Source: a virus (taxonomy: Duplodnaviria; Caudoviricetes). Taken from it: DNA of 64,000 nt. The stretch lies in the IMG/VR virus record IMGVR_UViG_3300025715_000009, positions 256,001-320,000 of that record; one strand, written 5' to 3'. A model generated the notes under the pieces. The model saw only the letters and a program-made list of their open reading frames with translations. It was not told the DNA's origin and made no database searches. The position numbers and the translations under genes were made by a program. Shown here in pieces: positions 37,078 to 62,467 of this stretch (position 1 is its first letter; each line of letters opens with the position of its first letter).

Positions 37078-37259
37078 TCGGGAGGCGAGGATTTGAACCT
37101 CGCTCTTTCTACATTCACACTTTAATCATGATTTACTGCAGTAATCATGCTGTCTGAAACTTGCTGTCCACCTCCGCGTTGGCTTTCAGTATTGTCAGAC
37201 TCGAAATGTAGTTGTGCTATTCAGCTCTAAGGCTGGCCTTTTTCCCTACACTACCCCCG
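37078..37259 (-). ncRNA. expanded tRNA-like RNA
   Basis: CGGGGG/CTCCCG-A acceptor, GCGAGG-TTCAAAT-CCTCGC T arm, 89-nt insert in place of the anticodon loop, enlarged D loop. Confidence 0.6.
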
Positions 37260-37264
37260 TAGTG

Positions 37265-37335
37265 TGCCCCATTTGGGAATCGAACCCAAGTAAATAGTTT
37301 TAGAGACTACCGCTTTACCATTAAGCAAATGGAGC
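37265..37335 (-). tRNA. tRNA-Sup (CTA), amber suppressor
   Basis: full cloverleaf; GTAGT-CT CTA AA-ACTAT. Confidence 0.85.
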
Positions 37336-42348: not shown

Positions 42349-43174
42349 GGGCTGAGACTATACCCTTCTCGCTATCACTTTCAAGCCCGTACCTTTGAGG
42401 TGCTACCCTCTCCGTTAAGCTCTTATCCACATCCTCATGGATGTCTGATAGCATGGCTGCCTTTTTTAGAGAGTGGCTTTTCTCTCGTCACAACAAGTTA
42501 ATCAACCTTCCGGTTACCGTCTACCTTGCGAGCAGTAAAGGACCGCTAAGTCCACCGTGCACCTTCCCATCAAACCCTTCCGCCTTGCGAGCTTCCAGGC
42601 TCCAGATTCTCTTTCGAGTCTGGACTTAAGCCATTTTCGCTTGTTGTCGGTCAAGACTTTTGCGTTTTCAATTGTTGGACTCGAACCAACGACCGATTGT
42701 ATTACAAGACAATTGCTCTACCATTGAGCAAAACTGAACGGGTTTCCCCTTGACCACGAGGTGCTTGACCAGTTGCTCCATATCCTTTTGAGATACGGAA
42801 TACAACACCTCGCATACATTTTACCTGCCGGCTACTTTGTGGTTTTTCAAGACCAGGTATTCCCCTGAATCTATCAAACTGCTATTAAGCACTTGTCTGC
42901 AAAGACTCGCACCTAATAACTACTGTTCTCTCTCATAGATAATCAGTTTTGCATGAAGATAATCCCTTGCGAGGAAAAGTTACTCTCACCCGGTTGGCCC
43001 TGAATAACTCTGTCTCTTCCTGATGTCTCTACAAATTCCGCTGGTAGCGAAATCATAGGAGAGTCAGCTTGCTTACATGAACTGTATTACTACAGCGGGA
43101 GGCGTCACCCTTTACCCCTTTATGATTATTGCTAATCACTATTCTTCGCCTTTCGGCAGGACCATAAGCAGCCC
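42349..43174 (-). ncRNA. GOLLD-like giant structured RNA (~826 nt)
   Basis: GC-richer region without credible ORF; 5' GGGCTG pairs with 3' CAGCCC; many GNRA hairpins; embedded tRNA; size and tRNA-cluster context fit GOLLD. Confidence 0.75.
42666..42738 (-). tRNA. tRNA embedded in GOLLD-like RNA, 8-nt anticodon loop (CU UGUA AU)
   Basis: TTCAGTT/AATTGAA acceptor; ATTGT-CTTGTAAT-ACAAT; GTTGG-TTCGAGT-CCAAC. Confidence 0.7.
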
Positions 43175-50012: not shown

Positions 50013-50050
50013 AGCCCCCGCGGTGAATCGAACACCGGACAAGCAGTTTA
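50013..50050 (-). pseudogene. tRNA 3' half stub (Thr-like)
   Basis: TAA-ACTGC-TTGTC-CGGTG TTCGATT CACCG-CGGGGGC-T immediately after the HNH stop. Confidence 0.75.
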
Positions 50051-51895: not shown

Positions 51896-52144
51896 TTAAT
51901 TGATATTAATATTTGTTTCTGTATAATCAAATTTTTTCTTTATACTTAGCTTTATATCTTCACTTTTTTCAGAATGGGGGATATATATTGAATGTGTTTT
52001 AGTTTTAAAATTAATTGTAAACCCACATCCAACATAACCATATTTTGTTTCACAGCATGATTTAATATTATTTTTTTTATATAAATTATGAATTATAATG
52101 TTATCGATCTCATTGTTTTTTATTTCACCAAAAACGTTTTTCAT
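51896..52144 (-). CDS. hypothetical protein
   Basis: ORF with SD. Confidence 0.6.
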   Translation of the reverse strand: MKNVFGEIKNNEIDNIIIHNLYKKNNIKSCCETKYGYVGCGFTINFKTKTHSIYIPHSEKSEDIKLSIKKKFDYTETNININ

Positions 52145-52146
52145 GT

Positions 52147-52887
52147 TTACTCCTTTAGTTTTTTCATTGCTTTGATTCTGTTTCTTATTATTTTTTTAGA
52201 AAACCTAATATTCTTCATAGAAACAAAATATTCATATAAATAAATAATACTAAATGGCAATAATAAGCTAAATAAAACAAGTGTTAATGAAAGAGAGAAG
52301 ATTAAAACTTTTTGTTTATTTAATATTGAATAATAACTTTCAGCACTTGAATCTACTCCAATAGATGCTATATGATTTTTTGATTTAGAATATAGTGGAC
52401 CATAAGCACTTATACTATAAGTATCAAATTCTTCATCATAAGATGTTTCTTGTTCAATTAAAATTTCTGATGTAAATAAAGACTCAAGCATTAGTTCAAA
52501 ATTTGAAGTATCATATTTTTTACCTAAAAATTCAATCTCTTCATCAGCATCTATAATAAACGATACAATATTTACATCATTAAAAATATAAATATAAATA
52601 TATGTCACATATTCTGGATATAAATTTTTTATAAACTGCAAATTATTTTTAATTTTTGTATATCTAACTAAAACTTCTTCATTTGATAGATTCAATTTAC
52701 CTTGAGAATAAAGTATCAATTGCTCTAAACTATCAGGGCAAACTACTAAAGAAGTAAGTTTAATAATTCTTGCTAATTCTGATTTATAAGCCTGTTCAAC
52801 CATATTTGCTTTTGTATTATAGATAAAAAAGTATACAATTGTTGTAATTATGATTGTATAGAGAATAAAAAATATTGTTTTACGCAC
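52147..52887 (-). CDS. two-TM periplasmic sensor (Cache-like) domain without output domain
   Basis: TM-YIYI..FIIDAD..G..Y..DE....SAYGPL..IGVD-TM. Confidence 0.7.
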   Translation of the reverse strand: MRKTIFFILYTIIITTIVYFFIYNTKANMVEQAYKSELARIIKLTSLVVCPDSLEQLILYSQGKLNLSNEEVLVRYTKIKNNLQFIKNLYPEYVTYIYIYIFNDVNIVSFIIDADEEIEFLGKKYDTSNFELMLESLFTSEILIEQETSYDEEFDTYSISAYGPLYSKSKNHIASIGVDSSAESYYSILNKQKVLIFSLSLTLVLFSLLLPFSIIYLYEYFVSMKNIRFSKKIIRNRIKAMKKLKE

Positions 52888-52921
52888 ATTATCTCCTAAG
52901 ATTATCTTTTAAAAAAATAGT

Positions 52922-52992
52922 TTGCCTTATTTGGATTTGAACCAAAACACTGAGCTTCAGAGACTCGTATGCTACCATTACATCATAAGGCA
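52922..52992 (-). tRNA. tRNA-Gln (CTG)
   Basis: cloverleaf; CTCTGAA. Confidence 0.88.
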
Positions 52993-53321
52993 TCGTTTTC
53001 ATATAATTCAGATAAATCTATTGCATATTGATTATCTTGTAAGTCATTACATTCACATGGAGAAATATTTAACCATGTCATAGCATCTAAGCATGAATAT
53101 AATTTCATTGCGTTTTTTCTGTTCATATATATGCAACATGCATTAAGCTTTTTATTATCTTGACTTATTGATGATAATTCTTTTATAGCCCAATTAGCAT
53201 AATTTTCAAAATTACTTCGGAGAGTAGAGTATCTACAATTTTTTCTTATTTGTTTTAATTTAATTGATTTGAAATCAAATTCTTTAAGAATTAAAATCTT
53301 ATCTTTATATTTAGTTAACAT
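52983..53321 (-). CDS. hypothetical protein
   Basis: ORF between tRNAs; stop inside tRNA-Gln. Confidence 0.65.
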   Translation of the reverse strand: MLTKYKDKILILKEFDFKSIKLKQIRKNCRYSTLRSNFENYANWAIKELSSISQDNKKLNACCIYMNRKNAMKLYSCLDAMTWLNISPCECNDLQDNQYAIDLSELYENDAL

Positions 53322-53322
53322 T

Positions 53323-53394
53323 TACTCTCACCAGGAATCGAACCTGGACTTTGAACTTAGGAGGTTCATGTTCTATCCATTAAACTATGAGAAT
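53323..53394 (-). tRNA. tRNA-Arg (CCT)
   Basis: cloverleaf. Confidence 0.9.
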
Positions 53395-53412
53395 TTTATA
53401 AAAACTATTTTC

Positions 53413-53826
53413 TTAAATTCTTTTTGCTTCTATAATTCTCTTTACATTTTGATAAATTTTTGGAGATTCTTTAGTAGCCTCAGCTTCATTAGATCTAAAG
53501 AATTCACACATTTCAAATTCTGTCTCTTCATCTTCACCAAAATAAGATCCCCAACCGGATATAGAACCAACTCTTAAATGTTGGCTTGAATCAAAATAAA
53601 CCTTACCAGTGTCTGAATCAACTTCTTGGGTGTTATCGCTTGGTAATTCCACAATCCTTGTAATCTTCATTCTCATTCCACCTGGTTTAGTGTTGAGAAC
53701 CTTACCATAGATGTTAAACATTTCACCTTCAATGTGAACATAGTCATCTTTTTGCATTTCACTGAATGAAGAATATTGTTTAGATTCCTTTGCTTCTAAT
53801 AATTTATTAAAATCAGAAAAATTCAT
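53413..53826 (-). CDS. hypothetical protein with CTS-like N-terminus
   Basis: MNFSDFNKLLEA; SD GGAGGT. Confidence 0.75.
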   Translation of the reverse strand: MNFSDFNKLLEAKESKQYSSFSEMQKDDYVHIEGEMFNIYGKVLNTKPGGMRMKITRIVELPSDNTQEVDSDTGKVYFDSSQHLRVGSISGWGSYFGEDEETEFEMCEFFRSNEAEATKESPKIYQNVKRIIEAKRI

Positions 53827-53907
53827 TACAACCTCCTAATGGTATAATATAATATATCTTTCTTCATTTAATAAAATAATTCAAAAATAATAAAATAATT
53901 CAAAAAA

Positions 53908-53980
53908 AGCCGCTTCTGAGAATCGAACTCAGATTACTTGTTTACGAAACAAGCGTAATAATCCATTATACGAAAGCGGC
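53908..53980 (-). tRNA. tRNA-Thr (CGT)
   Basis: cloverleaf. Confidence 0.9.
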
Positions 53981-53987
53981 TTATTCT

Positions 53988-54425
53988 CTACTCTATATTC
54001 CACCAATTCTTATCATATTCTACTAGCAGGACTTCAATAATGCCATATTTTCTATTTTCTGGTTTCTCATATACTTTATCTAGAGAAACAATAACTGTCT
54101 GAACATTTACACTAAAATATGCCCAATTGCTAAACATCTCAAGCAAATCATATGCTACTTTTGTATCGCCTGTGTAATTATTAACCAGTAATTCTTTAAA
54201 TTTTGGACTTTCTTGTAGTGCCCAAACATATTCTAGCATGGTGTTAAGACCAAAGAAAATGCCTCTAACAAATGTTTCTTTTGTAGATGTAGTGAATGTT
54301 ACCCAGTTTTCCCCATTAAGAGTTAAAATTCCTCTATCTGGTCTAGGTGGAGAATCACTAATTTGAGCAAATGCAGAAAAAACTAGACTAAGAAAAACCA
54401 GGACAAACATAATCTTCTTGAACAT
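53988..54425 (-). CDS. secreted protein, paralog of 51508-51870
   Basis: signal peptide AFA; shared motifs. Confidence 0.75.
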   Translation of the reverse strand: MFKKIMFVLVFLSLVFSAFAQISDSPPRPDRGILTLNGENWVTFTTSTKETFVRGIFFGLNTMLEYVWALQESPKFKELLVNNYTGDTKVAYDLLEMFSNWAYFSVNVQTVIVSLDKVYEKPENRKYGIIEVLLVEYDKNWWNIE

Positions 54426-54449
54426 CTTAACTCCTTTAAAAAAAGATTA

Positions 54450-54536
54450 CGGAAAGTGAGGGATTTGAACCCTCGGTGCCCTTACGAACACGCAATCTTA
54501 GCAGGATTGTGCCTTAGACCACTCGGCCAACTTTCC
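54450..54536 (-). tRNA. tRNA-Ser (GCT)
   Basis: cloverleaf with long variable arm. Confidence 0.93.
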
Positions 54537-54537
54537 A

Positions 54538-54963
54538 TTAAATATGCAATATATCTATGTTATTTGATTCAAAAATTATATTATTAGGACTTACTGCCCA
54601 AGTATATCTCATCTTATCCAAAATAGCAGATACAATAACTTGAACATTTTTACGATTAAATCCATTTCCTCGAATTGAAGCTATCTCTAAATATAATGTC
54701 TTGTTTGCAGGTACATACCCCCAATAAAAAGTAAAATCTGTTTCTCCTTCTAATTTCTGCTTAATTTGAGCATGCTTCATGCCTTGCATGGAGATAAATG
54801 CTTCGCCTTTAGATGAATATACTCCTCGACCCCAATTAGATCCAAATGGTTGCATGGGTTGAGTTGAATCAATCCATCCTTTAGGAAGATATTGTTTAAT
54901 TGAAGAAAAAGAAGTAATAAGTTTGCTGACTGTTGCTTCTGTTAAAACTTTGTCAAACTTCAT
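54538..54963 (-). CDS. hypothetical protein with CTS-like N-terminus
   Basis: MKFDKVLTEA. Confidence 0.75.
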   Translation of the reverse strand: MKFDKVLTEATVSKLITSFSSIKQYLPKGWIDSTQPMQPFGSNWGRGVYSSKGEAFISMQGMKHAQIKQKLEGETDFTFYWGYVPANKTLYLEIASIRGNGFNRKNVQVIVSAILDKMRYTWAVSPNNIIFESNNIDILHI

Positions 54964-55084
54964 GTTCTAATTCCTCTAGATATTTTTCAATATCTTTTTC
55001 TAAATCTTTGTCTTTAATTCTCATAAAAGTGAGAGCTTTGAGCATCCACTTTAATAAGAAAATTACAAGACTTGTTTTCATCTA

Positions 55085-55110
55085 GGTGATCGGTGGGAGT
55101 TGAACCCACC
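55085..55110 (-). pseudogene. tRNA-His-like 3' stub
   Basis: GTGGG TTCAACT CCCAC CGATCAC C. Confidence 0.7.
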
Positions 55111-55159
55111 TTATATTATACTGAAATAATATCCTTTCTAAAATAATTTACAACTATTA

Positions 55160-55231
55160 GGGGTTTAGAGGGAATTGAACCCTCGACAGTGGTTCCACAG
55201 ACCACGGTTTTACCACTAAACTATAAACCCC
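55160..55231 (-). tRNA. tRNA-His (GTG) with G-1:C73
   Basis: cloverleaf. Confidence 0.9.
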
Positions 55232-55234
55232 ATG

Positions 55235-56050
55235 CTATTTTAATCCTAAACGAATTTCTTCTCTAATGATATCTTCATTGAACCATTTTATTAAAACCTT
55301 ATTTTGTTCTTCTGCTGCTTTCCATTTTAACAAATCTTTTTTTGTTGTATATCCTTTTGTTTCAATATAATAAGAATTATTAACTTTAAAATCAAACAAA
55401 TACATATGTTCTTTATTATCTTCATCTATATACACTATTCTATCTTTAGTATATTCCCAACATAAAATTTCTTTATTTTCTAACATTTTATCTAAAACAA
55501 AACATGTTCTTAATTCATATGTTCCTTGAACTTTTATGTTTTTATAGTAAAACCATTTTGTGGTTCCTCCATAAACTTTTTTACCATTCTTGTATTGTTT
55601 TTTTAATATATTAGATTGTTTATCTCTATGTTCTTGAGATTTTATTTTACATTGAAAACATAATCCAGATTTGGATTTTTTATTAATTTGTTTACCACAC
55701 TTGCAATATAAGCGTTTATATTTAGTTTTTCCCTTATTATGTGGTATTTTGCCTTTTATTTTAATTGATATTTTTAATTTTGTTTTTTCTGTATGTTTTC
55801 GGCTATTACCACAGGAATGAGAACAATATTTCCTTTCTTTTTTGTCTATATGCTGCGTTCCATCTTTTTTTATTTTTCTTTCTATTTCAAATTCTTTTCC
55901 ACATTTAAGGCATTTTTTTATTATTTTAACTCTTTGAAGAGTTAAAGAATTACTAGATTTTATATAAAGTTCTGGGTTATGTGATGCTTTATGACCACCA
56001 TATGCTGATGAGTTTTTAAATTCTTTTCCACATATTTCACATTTATACAT
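55235..56050 (-). CDS. putative homing endonuclease (Zn fingers, NUMOD3-like, PD-(D/E)XK)
   Basis: C2H2, HTEKTKLKIS, QGTYE...YLFDF...IETKGY; start at MYKCE. Confidence 0.8.
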   Translation of the reverse strand: MYKCEICGKEFKNSSAYGGHKASHNPELYIKSSNSLTLQRVKIIKKCLKCGKEFEIERKIKKDGTQHIDKKERKYCSHSCGNSRKHTEKTKLKISIKIKGKIPHNKGKTKYKRLYCKCGKQINKKSKSGLCFQCKIKSQEHRDKQSNILKKQYKNGKKVYGGTTKWFYYKNIKVQGTYELRTCFVLDKMLENKEILCWEYTKDRIVYIDEDNKEHMYLFDFKVNNSYYIETKGYTTKKDLLKWKAAEEQNKVLIKWFNEDIIREEIRLGLK

Positions 56051-56077
56051 TATATTTGTTTTATATAAAAAAATAAA

Positions 56078-56155
56078 GGTGGTCGACGGGATTCGAACCC
56101 GCATTCTTTTCAGCCTGATCCACAGTCAGGTGCATAACCGTTCTGCCACGACCAC
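56078..56155 (-). tRNA. tRNA-His (GTG) with long variable region
   Basis: cloverleaf; variable region CTGAAAAGAAT; no encoded G-1. Confidence 0.8.
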
Positions 56156-56157
56156 AG

Positions 56158-56230
56158 TGGAGAATGCCGGACTTGAACCGGCCACATCCAGCTTGCAAAG
56201 CTGACGCTCTACCAGATGAGCTAATTCCCC
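56158..56230 (-). tRNA. tRNA-Ala (TGC)
   Basis: cloverleaf, G3.U70. Confidence 0.93.
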
Positions 56231-56394
56231 ATGATGAGTGAAGTATTATTTACATTTACATTTACTTCACTTACTTCTTTGCCACACAAACACTCTTTCT
56301 TTATCTTTACTAGTTTACCATCCTTGTAGATATAAATTTTTATTATACCTTGATTTATTGAGCAAAATTTACATGTATCACAATTCCATTCCAT
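56221..56394 (-). CDS. small Cys protein
   Basis: MEWNCDTCKFC...CLC; stop inside tRNA-Ala. Confidence 0.5.
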   Translation of the reverse strand: MEWNCDTCKFCSINQGIIKIYIYKDGKLVKIKKECLCGKEVSEVNVNVNNTSLIMGN

Positions 56395-56396
56395 AG

Positions 56397-56469
56397 AGAC
56401 CCCGACAGGATTTGAACCTGCATAAAATGGATTTGCAATCCACTCCCTAGCCATTCGGGTCACGGAGCC
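56397..56469 (-). tRNA. tRNA-Cys (GCA)
   Basis: cloverleaf, U73. Confidence 0.92.
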
Positions 56470-56587
56470 ACAGAAAACATAAAAGCAAGTAAGATGAAAA
56501 TAAAACCAGAAAAGAAAATAAAACTACCAATAAAACGAAATATAATCTTCATGCTTTTATTATATATTATATTTTAATCCTCTAAAA

Positions 56588-56670
56588 CGGAAACGGTGAG
56601 ATTCGAACTCACAAGCCCTCTCGGACCACTGGTTTTCGAAACCAGCGCCTTACCATTAGACTACGTTTCC
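56588..56670 (-). tRNA. tRNA-Ser (CGA)
   Basis: cloverleaf with long variable arm. Confidence 0.92.
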
Positions 56671-56676
56671 ATAAAT

Positions 56677-56940
56677 CTATAAATTAAATTGACAATATTC
56701 CTCTCCTTTTTGCATAAAATATTTTCCATCTTTTTCAAAAATAGGTGATAACACCCCATTTTCTTCTTTTTTACCAATAATAAAAGAAAATTTTTTGTCT
56801 TCATGCTGCAATATTATTTTTTTATTTGGATAATTAAGTTCTACAAGTTTATAGAGTAAATCATCAGTATTGTCATCTATAACTTCATAATTTAGTGGTG
56901 AGTTTTTATTTTCCATTTTTATTAAAAATTTTTGTATCAT
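56677..56940 (-). CDS. hypothetical protein
   Basis: ORF between tRNAs. Confidence 0.65.
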   Translation of the reverse strand: MIQKFLIKMENKNSPLNYEVIDDNTDDLLYKLVELNYPNKKIILQHEDKKFSFIIGKKEENGVLSPIFEKDGKYFMQKGEEYCQFNL

Positions 56941-56943
56941 ATA

Positions 56944-57016
56944 AGCCGCTTCCAGGAATTGAACCCGGGTCTTCAGTTTACAAGACTGTTGTAATAGCCA
57001 ACTATACTAAAGCGGC
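56944..57016 (-). tRNA. tRNA-Thr (TGT)
   Basis: cloverleaf. Confidence 0.9.
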
Positions 57017-57021
57017 ATAAG

Positions 57022-57094
57022 CGGGCATATCTGGTTACGATCCGGAACTACAAGATTGACAGTCTTGCGTGCAGAGCCACTACACTATACACCC
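57022..57094 (-). tRNA. tRNA-Asp (GTC), atypical T loop ATCGTAA
   Basis: cloverleaf. Confidence 0.8.
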
Positions 57095-57097
57095 ATA

Positions 57098-57182
57098 CGG
57101 AGAGAGGGAGACTCGAACTCCCAAGTCATATTTCAGACCACCTCGTTTCCAACGAGGCCAAATACCATTATCACATCTCTCC
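57098..57182 (-). tRNA. tRNA-Ser (GGA)
   Basis: cloverleaf with long variable arm. Confidence 0.88.
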
Positions 57183-57400
57183 ATTGGTCCTCTTATAGAG
57201 GACCATTAATTTACTTCTTCTTTTCTTTTCTTATTGGCTCTTCATATCTAAGAGCACAATTCCAACAAAGACGACCATTTGGATCGTTCTTTTTTGTGCA
57301 ATCACTGCACCAAATCCAAACTCTCTCATAATCTTTTTTTGTGTCCATAAACACCTCCGATTAATATAGAGGTGTTTTTAACTTCCTTTCATTTGTGCTC

Positions 57401-57793
57401 CTATTTAAACTCTAAATTTTCATTTTTAGAAATAGCATTTAACATTCCATTACACAATTCTAACCCCATAGTTATATCATAATCATCAAATTGTGTTAAT
57501 AACAAACCCTTTGCTAATTCATTTACTGGCTTGTTAAATAATTCTAATGTTTTTTCTCTCAAAATAGGTTCAATTTTCTTTAATTGCTCTGGTGTTAATT
57601 CCCCGTCACAATCTGAATGATCAAAGAAATCATATAATGGGTGGTCTACAGAGATTTGTTCTAACCACACATCTTCTTTATATAAAAAATATAAGTCATC
57701 AGAAAATCCACATTGATTCCATATACGACGTCTATATTGTCCAAAACCAGAATATGACCAATGCGCATTACAATGTGAAAAATCTATTCCCAT
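57401..57793 (-). CDS. phage protein (HSDCDG motif)
   Basis: WSYSGF..RR...HSDCDGE. Confidence 0.75.
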   Translation of the reverse strand: MGIDFSHCNAHWSYSGFGQYRRRIWNQCGFSDDLYFLYKEDVWLEQISVDHPLYDFFDHSDCDGELTPEQLKKIEPILREKTLELFNKPVNELAKGLLLTQFDDYDITMGLELCNGMLNAISKNENLEFK

Positions 57794-57804
57794 AATCTCT
57801 CCAT

Positions 57805-58065
57805 TTATTTATTAAATATAGAAATTATAATTTTTTCTAGTGCTTCAAGAACTATATTTAAATTATCTTGTATATCTAGAGGTGTTAAGTATTCTTCTAC
57901 ATTTTCTTTTGGTACCTCACCTCTTACATAAAACCAGGGACCATTTTCTTTTGTTGCATTTTTATCAATTGGTATTGGTTCAAAAAAATAAACAACAGCT
58001 TTTTCACTTTTTTTTGTGCTAAAAACAAGACTATAATATCCAGCTTTTGTTTTACCAAATATCAT
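57805..58065 (-). CDS. small hypothetical protein (IIISIF motif family)
   Basis: ORF with SD. Confidence 0.7.
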   Translation of the reverse strand: MIFGKTKAGYYSLVFSTKKSEKAVVYFFEPIPIDKNATKENGPWFYVRGEVPKENVEEYLTPLDIQDNLNIVLEALEKIIISIFNK

Positions 58066-58083
58066 AATATCCTCCTTACTTTA

Positions 58084-58154
58084 ATCCCTGACTAGGAGTC
58101 GAACCTAGACCGTAAGATTCAAAATCTTTTATGCTACCGCTACACCATCAGGGA
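58084..58154 (-). tRNA. tRNA-Gln (TTG)
   Basis: cloverleaf. Confidence 0.88.
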
Positions 58155-58385
58155 AAGTAATGAGGGCCTAGGACCCTCATTGTTGAGATTTGTAGTGCTC
58201 TCACACATTACAATTGTGCGCAAAGGGGCTCTCAAACCCTTTTAACCCACTGAGATTCATCAGCTCCCCATGTGGACCAGCAATATAGCACATCGAATTT
58301 AACGCCGAGATTGTGCAAAGGGCGTGCCAGGTCAGGTCATAAGGCCAACCACCTTTATTCACTCCAAAAGGTAAGGAGGAGTAAG

Positions 58386-58457
58386 TGGACACGGGGGGAT
58401 TCGAACCCCTTAGACCTGAATGCAAATCAGGCGCATTACCAGTTATGCTACCGGCCC
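58386..58457 (-). tRNA. tRNA-Ala (TGC), imperfect acceptor
   Basis: cloverleaf, G3.U70. Confidence 0.8.
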
Positions 58458-58461
58458 ATGG

Positions 58462-58543
58462 TAGGTCAGGTTGGACTTTAACTAACATCTTCCGTAGTTG
58501 TTCATGACCAGAGCTACGGCGTTTTAATTATTACTACTGACCT
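58462..58543 (-). ncRNA. tRNA-like RNA with expanded anticodon arm
   Basis: AGGTCAG/CTGACCT acceptor; CCGTAG/CTACGG stem around 16 nt; degenerate T arm. Confidence 0.5.
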
Positions 58544-58693
58544 GTTTGTGCAATTTTATGATTAATTGCTGTAATCCTATTTATGCAAATTTTTCTCATA
58601 AAAGGCAACTTATATCTAAACAATCGAGAAAGAAAACAAAAGAATAGATTATCAGAACCATGAACAAGCTTGTAATAAAAGTTGATTTTACTT

Positions 58694-59050
58694 CTAAGGC
58701 TTTTCATATTTCTCCTTTAGCTTCTTTAGTAAGGCTAATTCCTCTTCCTCTTTTTGCTTTTTCATCAACTTTGCTTCAGCTCTTTTTCGCTTTCTTGCTT
58801 CAGCCTCCTTATTGCATCGAATAGCAAACTCTTCATTAGTCTCATCTCTTATTCCAAAAATGGTATAAGAGCCAGGAGCATGTTCATTATATGCATAATC
58901 ATAATCAATTAAAAATGACTTATATTTTGTTCTATCAACATCACCAATTAAAAGATTCCAGAGGTCTTCAGGAGTAGATATAGTATGTGAATCTAATCTC
59001 GAAACTGAATAGTTGTCTATTTCATCTCTTACTTCCATCTTTTCCATCAT
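58694..59050 (-). CDS. hypothetical protein
   Basis: ORF with SD. Confidence 0.7.
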   Translation of the reverse strand: MMEKMEVRDEIDNYSVSRLDSHTISTPEDLWNLLIGDVDRTKYKSFLIDYDYAYNEHAPGSYTIFGIRDETNEEFAIRCNKEAEARKRKRAEAKLMKKQKEEEELALLKKLKEKYEKP

Positions 59051-59060
59051 CTACTCCTTT

Positions 59061-59085
59061 TGCAAGATACAGGACTCGAACCTGT
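59061..59085 (-). pseudogene. 3' stub of a split tRNA (Val-like)
   Basis: ACAGG TTCGAGT CCTGT ATCTTGC A. Confidence 0.75.
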
Positions 59086-59167: not shown

Positions 59168-59907
59168 AAATTTAAAATCAATTCTACAAATTCTTCATAT
59201 TTCTTAACTACATAAAAATTCAATTTATTCTCTTTATATAGTTCTATTTTATCCAACCATTTTTCATATGACTTTTTAAAACTTTCGTAATTCTTAACTC
59301 TATCTCTATCAATTCCATCTAATTCAATCCAAATATCTTTATCAACTAAATATATATCACTTAGTCTTGATGAATTTGGCAAATATTTATGAGGATCAAA
59401 TCTTATATTTTTATCTTCTAAGAAATTAAAACATTTTTCTTCTAAAGAAGATTGAAAATATGTTCCAACCTTAGTATATCCTTTTTTTCCAAATCCACCT
59501 TTTCTCCCAATTTCTCCAAGTCTTTTTCTTTCTTTTAACGAAGAAGCATTTTTTTTATTTACTATAGACATTGTTAATTTAAAATCTGATGAACTTCTAT
59601 AACAATCCACACAATATCCAGTTTTATTACCATATTTTAGTAATTTATTACAAGTTTTACAATATCCATATATTTTCTTTTTTTTAATATTTTTAGGTTT
59701 TTTAAGTGATAATTTGACTCCTAATGAAATTTTTCTTTTCCATTCTTCTGAGTGGACATGCCCATTTGCACAAGATCTACTACAGAATTCTCTTTCATAT
59801 TTTGGAACATTTTGAAATCCATTTTCTGATATAGTTCTAAAAACTTCAAATTCTTTTCCACACTTTTTACATATTTTATTAATTGCAATTTTATTTAATT
59901 TTTTCAT
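59158..59907 (-). CDS. putative homing endonuclease (Zn fingers, NUMOD3-like, Vsr/DUF559-like nuclease)
   Basis: CKKC..FCSRSC, HSEEWKRKIS, SSLE...SDIYL...WIELDG; stop inside tRNA-Val. Confidence 0.8.
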   Translation of the reverse strand: MKKLNKIAINKICKKCGKEFEVFRTISENGFQNVPKYEREFCSRSCANGHVHSEEWKRKISLGVKLSLKKPKNIKKKKIYGYCKTCNKLLKYGNKTGYCVDCYRSSSDFKLTMSIVNKKNASSLKERKRLGEIGRKGGFGKKGYTKVGTYFQSSLEEKCFNFLEDKNIRFDPHKYLPNSSRLSDIYLVDKDIWIELDGIDRDRVKNYESFKKSYEKWLDKIELYKENKLNFYVVKKYEEFVELILNLGA

Positions 59908-59964
59908 ATAATTATCTTATATAAACAAATCGAACCATGTGTTTTCTATATGTTATTTTTTCTT

Positions 59965-62333: not shown

Positions 62334-62431
62334 ATTATCCTTCTCTAATGCCAATTAACCCTAAGAGCATTGGCTTTCTTTTTCAAAGTTCTTGTTGTCT
62401 TGGTCATTATATACTCAAGACTTTTATCTCT

Positions 62432-62467
62432 AAAACAAAAAAGGCATTCAGCCTAAGCCGAATGCCT
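62432..62467 (-). terminator. intrinsic terminator (candidate attenuator) upstream of the tRNA array
   Basis: AGGCATTCGGC-TTAG-GCTGAATGCCT-TTTTTGTTTT. Confidence 0.85.

Follow-up and report, generated by a model that had tools for sequence, protein, structure and literature searches.

To our knowledge, homing endonucleases of phage transfer RNA (tRNA) clusters are known from one family, SegB. In T4, SegB finds tRNA genes by their T-psi-C motif, cleaves them at that point, and is spread along with adjacent tRNA genes (PMC2330249); in T6, SegB is described as cutting within tRNA genes and driving recombination (PMC13096335). SegB of T4 and T6 is the closest known system to the locus analysed here, which lies at 55085-56155 on the minus strand of a 64,000-nucleotide (nt) stretch of viral DNA (the window; positions 256,001 to 320,000 of IMG/VR record IMGVR_UViG_3300025715_000009), within a 388-kb phage record of 30% G+C. 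At this locus, a gene for a predicted nuclease sits between two tRNA-His genes (His#1 upstream and His#2 downstream) and is followed by the severed 3' end of a further tRNA-His, which we call the stub. We interpret the locus, with a probability of roughly 0.6, as the footprint of a family of free-standing, homing-type endonucleases with zinc fingers and a PD-(D/E)XK domain that live in the tRNA arrays of large phages.

The present family and SegB are alike in that each is represented by a free-standing nuclease gene in a phage tRNA array, and each is statistically tied to tRNA genes. They are alike in position as well: the SegB target lies in the T-psi-C stem-loop motif, and the stubs described here start at the boundary between variable loop and T arm. 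They differ in fold, SegB being a GIY-YIG enzyme and the present nuclease a PD-(D/E)XK enzyme with zinc fingers, whose activity is predicted. Unlike SegB, the present family has a tight layout, with its stop codon at or inside the next tRNA, together with flanking tRNAs of the same isotype and displaced 3' stubs that we did not find described for SegB in the available parts of the two reports (PMC2330249, PMC13096335). A likeness of another kind is offered by I-Bth0305I (PDB 3r3p), a mobile nuclease with a restriction-endonuclease-like core. I-Ssp6803I, the homing endonuclease of a cyanobacterial tRNA-fMet intron, has the PD-(D/E)XK fold and is also tied to a tRNA. Both differ from the present case in being intron-encoded, with splicing repairing the host gene, whereas here extra tRNA sequence would preserve tRNA function.

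Elements that integrate into tRNA genes carry a replacement 3' end (attL/attR), and tRNA gene fragments have been reviewed (PMC9897764). The outcome resembles our locus: one side of such an insert has a complete tRNA, and the other a displaced fragment that repeats part of its 3' end. An integrase attachment (att) site was nevertheless rejected as the explanation: none of the nine neighbouring open reading frames (ORFs) matched an integrase or any other Pfam family above threshold, and the 3' part of His#1 and the stub are 76% identical with no exact repeat, in contrast to the exact repeat of att sites. The host here is moreover a phage genome, and the junctions vary among relatives. We also discarded a giant intron or split tRNA that would connect the 5' half of His#1 with the stub; an E-value scan of 52000-59000 with Rfam returned only tRNAs and chance matches and no intron model, and His#1 is complete without splicing.

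The stub (26 nt, 55085-55110) reads g GTGGG TTCAACT CCCAC CGATCAC C, that is, a T arm (55109-55093), an acceptor strand CGATCAC (55092-55086), and a discriminator C (55085). A strict T-arm pattern had 63 matches in the genome, 49 in called tRNAs and 14 outside them (12 on the tRNA strand), compared to 0.3 in shuffles. At 75 viral loci a T arm was followed by CGATCACC; 64 of these loci are called tRNA-His, and most of the rest look His-like. The stub is a genuine tRNA remnant, beyond chance, and these counts bear out its first-pass annotation as an orphan T arm with a His-type CGATCAC-C ending. The pairing claimed there is also present: the acceptor strand pairs at 7/7 positions, with one G.U, with GTGGTCG at the 5' end of His#1. 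In nature CGATCAC pairs most often with this same 5' strand, GTGGTCG, which occurs in 30 of 62 unique sequences, compared to 14 with GTGATCG. In identity, the stub comes closest to the His#1 3' part of a relative, contig L032 (88%); the corresponding values are 76% for the window's His#1 and 65% for His#2. Judged by these comparisons, it is the 3' end of a further tRNA-His allele of the His#1 lineage and not of His#2. The truncation falls where the variable loop meets the T stem, and a conserved flank follows directly after the stub. Because the T stems of the stub and of the replacement sequence differ by compensated changes, both come from working alleles. The spacer after His#2 was not significantly similar to the flank after the stub, of which it might have been a copy (p 0.79; other pairs, 0.045-0.99).

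Comparison with other members of the nuclease family connects such stubs to the nuclease. Our homologue search found 97 nuclease homologues, 39 of which were aligned. They reside in same-strand tRNA arrays at 7 of 8 viral loci and at most of 80 metagenome loci, typically with a tRNA, ~50-80 nt, the nuclease, and a next tRNA whose first nucleotide falls anywhere from 16 nt before the end of the stop codon to 8 nt past it; among isotypes, His and Asp predominate. Two unrelated loci are especially close to ours in arrangement. At L073, an intact tRNA-His and 60 nt precede the nuclease, whose TAG is followed by ggaggtc GGCAG TTCGATT CTGCT TGGTCAC-C; at L088, an intact tRNA-Asp and 70 nt precede a nuclease that is followed by c gaaggtc GTGGG TTCGAGT CCCAT CCGGATC-G. 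Both stubs have the isotype of the upstream tRNA, begin at the variable loop, and come with no spare tRNA. Each pairs at 7/7 positions with the 5' strand of the upstream tRNA, compared to 2-5/7 for unrelated orphan T arms. The upstream tRNA-Asp of L088 pairs at just 5/7 positions with its own 3' strand (A2.C71 and T3.T70 in the ARAGORN structure). It is therefore a chimera, its 5' part resident and its 3' part foreign, and the stub is the true partner of the resident 5' strand; the two Asp alleles concerned have the acceptor stems GATCCGG/CCGGATC and GGACCGG/CCGGTCC. L088 provides direct evidence, at the sequence level, that a tract arriving with a nuclease of this family can bring a replacement 3' end for a tRNA, the former 3' end being shifted to a position behind the nuclease. 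Across the stubs, the break always falls at about tRNA positions 43-48.

Other members of the family extend this picture. Contigs L052 and L054 carry a tRNA-Ala, a nuclease of another clade (55% identity, catalytic half), 9 nt, and then GAAGG TTCAAAT CCTTC a tcga(t/c)cacc, and share just a 30-nt stretch with the window flank. The Val locus of the phage genome itself has a related zinc-finger nuclease (window 59548-59931; 37% identity over residues 27-152) and an orphan T arm at 59069-59085. A remote homologue of the catalytic half (L312; 30% identity, E 4e-4) was found in Citrobacter phage CkP1 (MW239124.1, 70850-71485), where it is annotated as a hypothetical protein within the tRNA cluster of a cultured T4-like phage.

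The 271-amino-acid (aa) nuclease is encoded at 55235-56050 (271 codons plus stop, minus strand), its start being set by alignment of homologues in preference to an alternative 289-aa reading that would begin inside His#1. Its N-terminus comprises a C2H2 finger, further Cys pairs, and a NUMOD3-like stretch. E179, D220, and E230-x-K232, in the order of the PD-(D/E)XK signature, are invariant in the aligned homologues. An AlphaFold model had a mean predicted local distance difference test score (pLDDT) of 82, with block means of ~76-97 over the C-terminal domain, and predicts the alpha-beta-beta-beta-alpha-beta core of restriction-endonuclease-like proteins. VIA-align of residues about 162-271 gave moderate Z values for TnsA (8.7; 107 residues aligned, root-mean-square deviation 3.3), I-Bth0305I (6.7), and Vsr (6.3), with VRR-NUC and Bax1 as further restriction-like matches. 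PHROG 945 'endonuclease' matched at E 3.8e-6, and neither Pfam nor PHROGs produced a GIY-YIG match. Pfam matches were all below threshold (C2H2 fingers, NUMOD3, and Phage_endo_I with 18.9 bits against a cut-off of 29.1), which is no argument against a PD-(D/E)XK fold. A Foldseek search with the whole model returned no match with E < 0.001, and a profile search of PDB sequences returned zinc fingers only; the structural assignment is based on VIA-align and the catalytic motif. The invariant motif and the predicted-fold matches, together with the tRNA calls on either side, uphold the first-pass annotation of a PD-(D/E)XK endonuclease between two tRNA-His genes. Cleavage activity and its target are predicted by analogy.

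Upstream of the nuclease, the 27-nt A+T-rich spacer that separates it from His#1 (56051-56077) has neither a consensus promoter nor a clear Shine-Dalgarno sequence. Since tRNAs also abut the gene, the nuclease mRNA is probably derived from the tRNA operon transcript and freed by tRNA processing. At several homologue loci (L035, L041, L042, L048, L050, L053, L055, L057, L059, L067, and L109), the nuclease stop codon lies 10-16 nt inside the downstream tRNA, and at L306 (3673-3746) it lies 65 nt inside; 5' processing of such a tRNA would leave a non-stop mRNA.

Contigs related to the locus itself show its surroundings in several states. Sixteen other contigs (L012-L027), recovered from a number of sludge and digester metagenomes, match the window at 100% identity over the part of 54400-56700 that each covers; 14 of them span it entirely, and every one carries the nuclease gene. 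The phage occurs, for example, in samples JGI 3300009776, 3300025706, and 3300009771, ENA ERZ761563, and SRR5007146 and SRR5007150. Four diverged contigs were identified through the 141-aa gene of the right flank: L029 is informative, L030 starts at the gene, and L028 and L031 are rearranged. In L029, a 1.7-kb contig whose 141-aa gene is 93% identical to that of the window, tRNA-Ala is followed directly by the nuclease, His#2, only cgatcacc (the last 8 nt of the stub), and the same flank, leaving His#2 as the sole tRNA-His at the locus. Its nuclease gene is without the codon for the first Cys and is frameshifted by an additional A within an A run. Since a bare acceptor remnant has to be derived from a T arm with its acceptor, the most plausible reading of L029 is that decay and deletion produced it from a state like that of the window. 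In L032, whose nuclease is 80% identical, the order is tRNA-Ala, His#1 with a 17-nt hairpin variable arm, nuclease, and His#2, followed by a different downstream region in which no stub follows His#2. In L309 and L310 (nucleases 49% identical) and L311 (48%), the tRNA upstream of the nuclease is of the His#1 type and carries a long, hairpin-forming variable arm; to judge by its ATG anticodon and a mismatch in the T stem, the copy in L309 seems to be decaying.

Segment identities among these contigs are incongruent. The window's tRNA-Ala is 93% identical to that of L309 and 67% to that of L032, and its nuclease DNA is 83% identical to that of L032 and 65% to that of L309, indicating that the region has been exchanged between lineages. 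Mosaic flanks and decayed copies (L029, truncated and frameshifted; L306, 5'-truncated) are the signs of invasion and decay known for homing endonucleases. The combined evidence from relatives, L073, and L088 supports, at the level of sequence comparison, a nuclease-linked event that truncated a resident tRNA-His and supplied a spare.

We envisage the event as follows. The nuclease would cut nuclease-free tRNA-His alleles near the boundary of variable loop and T arm, as SegB of T4 does in its own targets, a site that is proposed from the SegB analogy and from where the stubs begin. The break would be repaired from a nuclease-carrying donor, with tRNA sequences serving as homology, and the right end of the copied tract (nuclease, His#2, and promoter spacer) would be joined to the broken resident gene without homology, leaving the resident T arm and acceptor strand behind as the stub. 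His#2, and possibly the 3' part of His#1, would maintain the tRNA-His supply because the tract brings an intact tRNA-His. The resident 5' part would either now be the front of His#1 or have been lost, with His#1 being brought in whole or being a separate tandem gene. More tentatively, the members of this widespread family may be specialists for large-phage tRNA genes that avoid destroying the function they invade, with no intron or intein involved, by carrying replacement tRNA as a new 3' part or a whole spare; every invasion would then leave a working tRNA plus a displaced stub.

Several observations weigh against this interpretation. The single tRNA-His expected at an empty site, in which the 5' half ending at 56155 joins the stub, was predicted by the first-pass annotation, and the check was run: none appeared in relatives or in pattern searches. 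The 16 identical contigs cannot supply an empty site precisely because of their identity, and no relative found has a single intact tRNA-His at this spot. Searches of viral contigs for the exact stub and for the exact 5' half of His#1 gave 0 matches, as did a search for the Ala/His#1 junction; a degenerate pattern of the His#1 5' half matched only L145 among viral contigs and none of the genome contigs, and a 14-mer scan was too unspecific for use. L309 and L310 have neither His#2 nor a stub after the nuclease within the ~100-140 nt of contig available. His#1 itself bears no sign of chimerism, with a perfect acceptor stem and a T arm that matches the His#1-type tRNA of the nuclease-free L145. 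Finally, orphan T arms are common in such arrays generally, and some have no adjoining nuclease, as in the rearranged, nuclease-free L031.

This last point leads to the unlikely alternative that the stub is unrelated to the nuclease, being ordinary decay or deletion debris of a fast-changing tRNA array that lies beside it by coincidence. The genome's 12 tRNA-strand orphan T arms outside called tRNAs, the 97 orphans in the 80 metagenome loci of nuclease homologues, and the L031 example would all fit. Many of these orphans, however, are whole odd tRNAs missed by ARAGORN; same-isotype stubs with 7/7 pairing recur directly past the nuclease stop in independent loci; and in L052 and L054 a nuclease of another clade abuts a His-type stub. 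The L031 orphan (L031:513-575) lies between a tRNA-Cys and the homologue of the 141-aa gene and consists of a T arm, ATGGG TTCAAGT CCCAT, followed by ctccgtg-a and a long hairpin; its T arm is 16/17 identical to that of the L032 His#1. Among the ARAGORN-missed, tRNA-like sequences, those of L036, L041, L042, L049, L067, L069, L104, and L112 have a 'gagttacttcg'-like insert upstream of the anticodon arm and resemble tRNAs with an enlarged D region.

How His#1 came to its present form bears on two further readings, both variants of a nuclease-linked event. His#1 (GTG anticodon, 78 nt, 56078-56155; called by ARAGORN and matched by the Rfam tRNA model at 57.1 bits) has a perfectly paired acceptor stem, GTGGTCG/CGACCAC plus C73, and a T arm at 56102-56086. 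The 11-nt variable region noted in the first-pass annotation is present (ctgaaaagaat, 56113-56103) and can fold into a small GAAA-capped hairpin. The suggestion made there that it could mark a junction is contradicted by relatives: long variable arms, often hairpins with GNRA-like tetraloop caps, occur in the His#1-type tRNAs of L032, L309, and L311. They are present in L145 as well, a complete phage of 488 kb that has no homologue of the nuclease and whose two His#1-type genes stand in tandem, 171 nt apart, one of them ending in cgatcacc. On this comparison, the 11-nt region is a lineage trait and not a junction scar. His#1 accompanies the nuclease in four lineages.

In the exact version proposed by the first-pass annotation, which is a sub-case of the interpretation favoured here, a single resident gene was split, the front of His#1 (56155 to ~56114) being resident and its T arm and acceptor strand coming from the insert; its empty allele would read ...GATCAGG, a short variable loop, and GTGGGTTCAACTCCCACCGATCACC. 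The chimera of L088 and the layout of L073 show the process at work in the family, the stub belongs to the His#1-type alleles, no natural pairing is commoner than GTGGTCG/CGATCAC, and the spacing between tRNA-Ala and His#1 is conserved. The perfect acceptor stem of His#1 stands against it, as do the co-occurrence of its 5' part and T arm in L145 and the nature of the long variable arm. Both halves of His#1 also track the nuclease, and not tRNA-Ala, in identity, a comparison that is blurred by the decaying L309 copy. We regard this version as possible but doubtful. Resident truncation and the supply of a spare, as the first-pass annotation proposed, are supported by the relatives and by L073 and L088; its proposal of His#1 as the rebuilt resident gene is conjectural.

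A second version, which we hold just as tentatively, starts from an ancestor with two His#1-type genes, in which the nuclease, His#2, and the promoter spacer took the place of the intergenic spacer and of all but the last third of the second gene, leaving His#1 untouched. L145 provides such a pair, with the matching cgatcacc ending; the gap following a tRNA is the usual home of the family; and L309 and L311 carry a His#1-type tRNA and the nuclease with no stub. L145 is not closely related, however, no relative shows the tandem state at this locus, and the chimera of L088 shows that another route exists.

His#2 (canonical, about 55160-55231; ARAGORN and Rfam, 68.8 bits) begins 3 nt past the nuclease stop, and a tRNA of the same type directly follows the nuclease in L032 and L029. 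It has all the features of a bacterial-type tRNA-His, a GTG anticodon, C73, and an encoded G-1 that pairs with it; its variable loop is 4 nt long. His#1 has GTG and C73 as well, but its position -1 is T (window 56156), so that G-1 is not genome-encoded. Bacterial histidyl-tRNA synthetase requires G-1 on tRNA-His. A T at -1 is also found in L032 (L032:2413), L309 (L309:119), and a number of other phage tRNA-His ending in CGATCACC. Among the 59 tRNAs that ARAGORN calls in the phage genome, all on the minus strand, His#1 and His#2 are the only tRNA-His.

Variable-arm hairpins might also serve as an immunity mark, by splitting the nuclease's recognition site in the linked tRNA. Septu is reported to cut tRNA-Tyr within the variable loop (PMC13096335). 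Long variable arms found no support as a general mark of nuclease-linked tRNAs: by eye, ~3/27 upstream and ~3/19 downstream neighbours measured at least 80 nt, and long arms occur elsewhere too. In these huge phages, tRNAs of 80-95 nt are common in isotypes whose variable loop is usually short (His, Ala, Asn, Asp, Met, Lys, Trp, and Cys), their extra bases forming variable-arm hairpins that are often capped by GAAA or GCAA tetraloops. Examples are window 56103-56113, L032:2457-2473, L063:3335-3427, L145:1473-1555, and L037:1948-2029.

The presence of three tRNA-His sequences at one locus also evokes a collapsed amplification, in which a unit of tRNA-His plus nuclease was tandemly amplified under a tRNA-targeting defence and later decayed. 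SegB is described as driving tandem amplification of tRNA-Tyr plus segB via microhomology (PMC13096335). At 65-76% identity and with compensated stem differences, the three sequences here (His#1, His#2, and the stub) are too unlike one another to be recent copies of one unit, and the locus has a single nuclease copy and no repeat junction; we consider this scenario highly unlikely. A recent tandem duplication was rejected because the three sequences are too divergent.

Between His#2 and the stub lies a 49-nt spacer (55111-55159) with a match to a promoter consensus (TTTAGA at 55142-55137, TATAAT at 55120-55115). TTTAGA-N15-17-TATAAT occurs 33 times in the genome, 32 of them on the gene strand, compared to an expectation of 2.9, and is likely, by this enrichment, to be a promoter consensus of the phage or its host. 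The -10 box ends 5 nt ahead of the stub, and with this match in the spacer the inserted tract need not silence the genes behind it. One might then suppose that the stub was kept for a function of its own, such as a 5' leader hairpin of the transcript from the promoter at 55142-55115, given the promoter's proximity and the intact T stem. Against this stands L029, which has lost both promoter and T arm and keeps the downstream genes; the origin of the stub would also be left unexplained, and we judge such a function very improbable. Consensus sites in the window include this one (55115-55142) and those at 56559-56586 and 62406-62434.

If the family behaves as envisaged under our preferred interpretation, a homing-type footprint, it would represent a second, unrelated nuclease fold in the niche of phage tRNA clusters. 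The family is frequent among uncultured huge phages, and cultured T4-like phages have remote relatives of it that lack annotation. Its activity would account for some of the fast turnover of phage tRNA arrays, of their duplications, and of the tRNA fragments that litter them. Bringing a patch or a spare would be a third way for a selfish nuclease to occupy a useful gene. For annotation, orphan tRNA 3' ends beside these nucleases would be footprints and not att sites.

The complete minus-strand order of the locus, 5' to 3', is tRNA-Ala, His#1, the 271-aa nuclease ORF, His#2, the 49-nt promoter spacer, the 26-nt stub, a 42-aa ORF, and the 141-aa gene. tRNA-Ala(TGC) (56157-56230, minus strand) is the left neighbour, 1 nt ahead of His#1, and this junction recurs in L032 and L309. 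The conserved right flank with the 42-aa ORF and 141-aa gene (54538-55081, minus strand) served as the anchor for relatives L029, L030, L031, and L028. Other tRNA-strand orphan T arms outside ARAGORN calls lie at window 37086-37102 and 50021-50037, in addition to 59069-59085, and at genome positions 350672, 351906, 352067, 352441, 354202, 363446, 364351, and 364735; some of these are stubs beside other nucleases (Thr, Val), and others may be whole odd tRNAs. Elsewhere in the window, an Rfam tRNA match at gathering score (29.3 bits) at 58462-58543, uncalled by ARAGORN, adjoins a tRNA-Ala at 58385-58457. ARAGORN also calls a tRNA with anticodon CTA at 37264-37335, labelled Pyl and possibly an amber suppressor, and a tRNA with the 4-nt anticodon tgta at 42666-42738.

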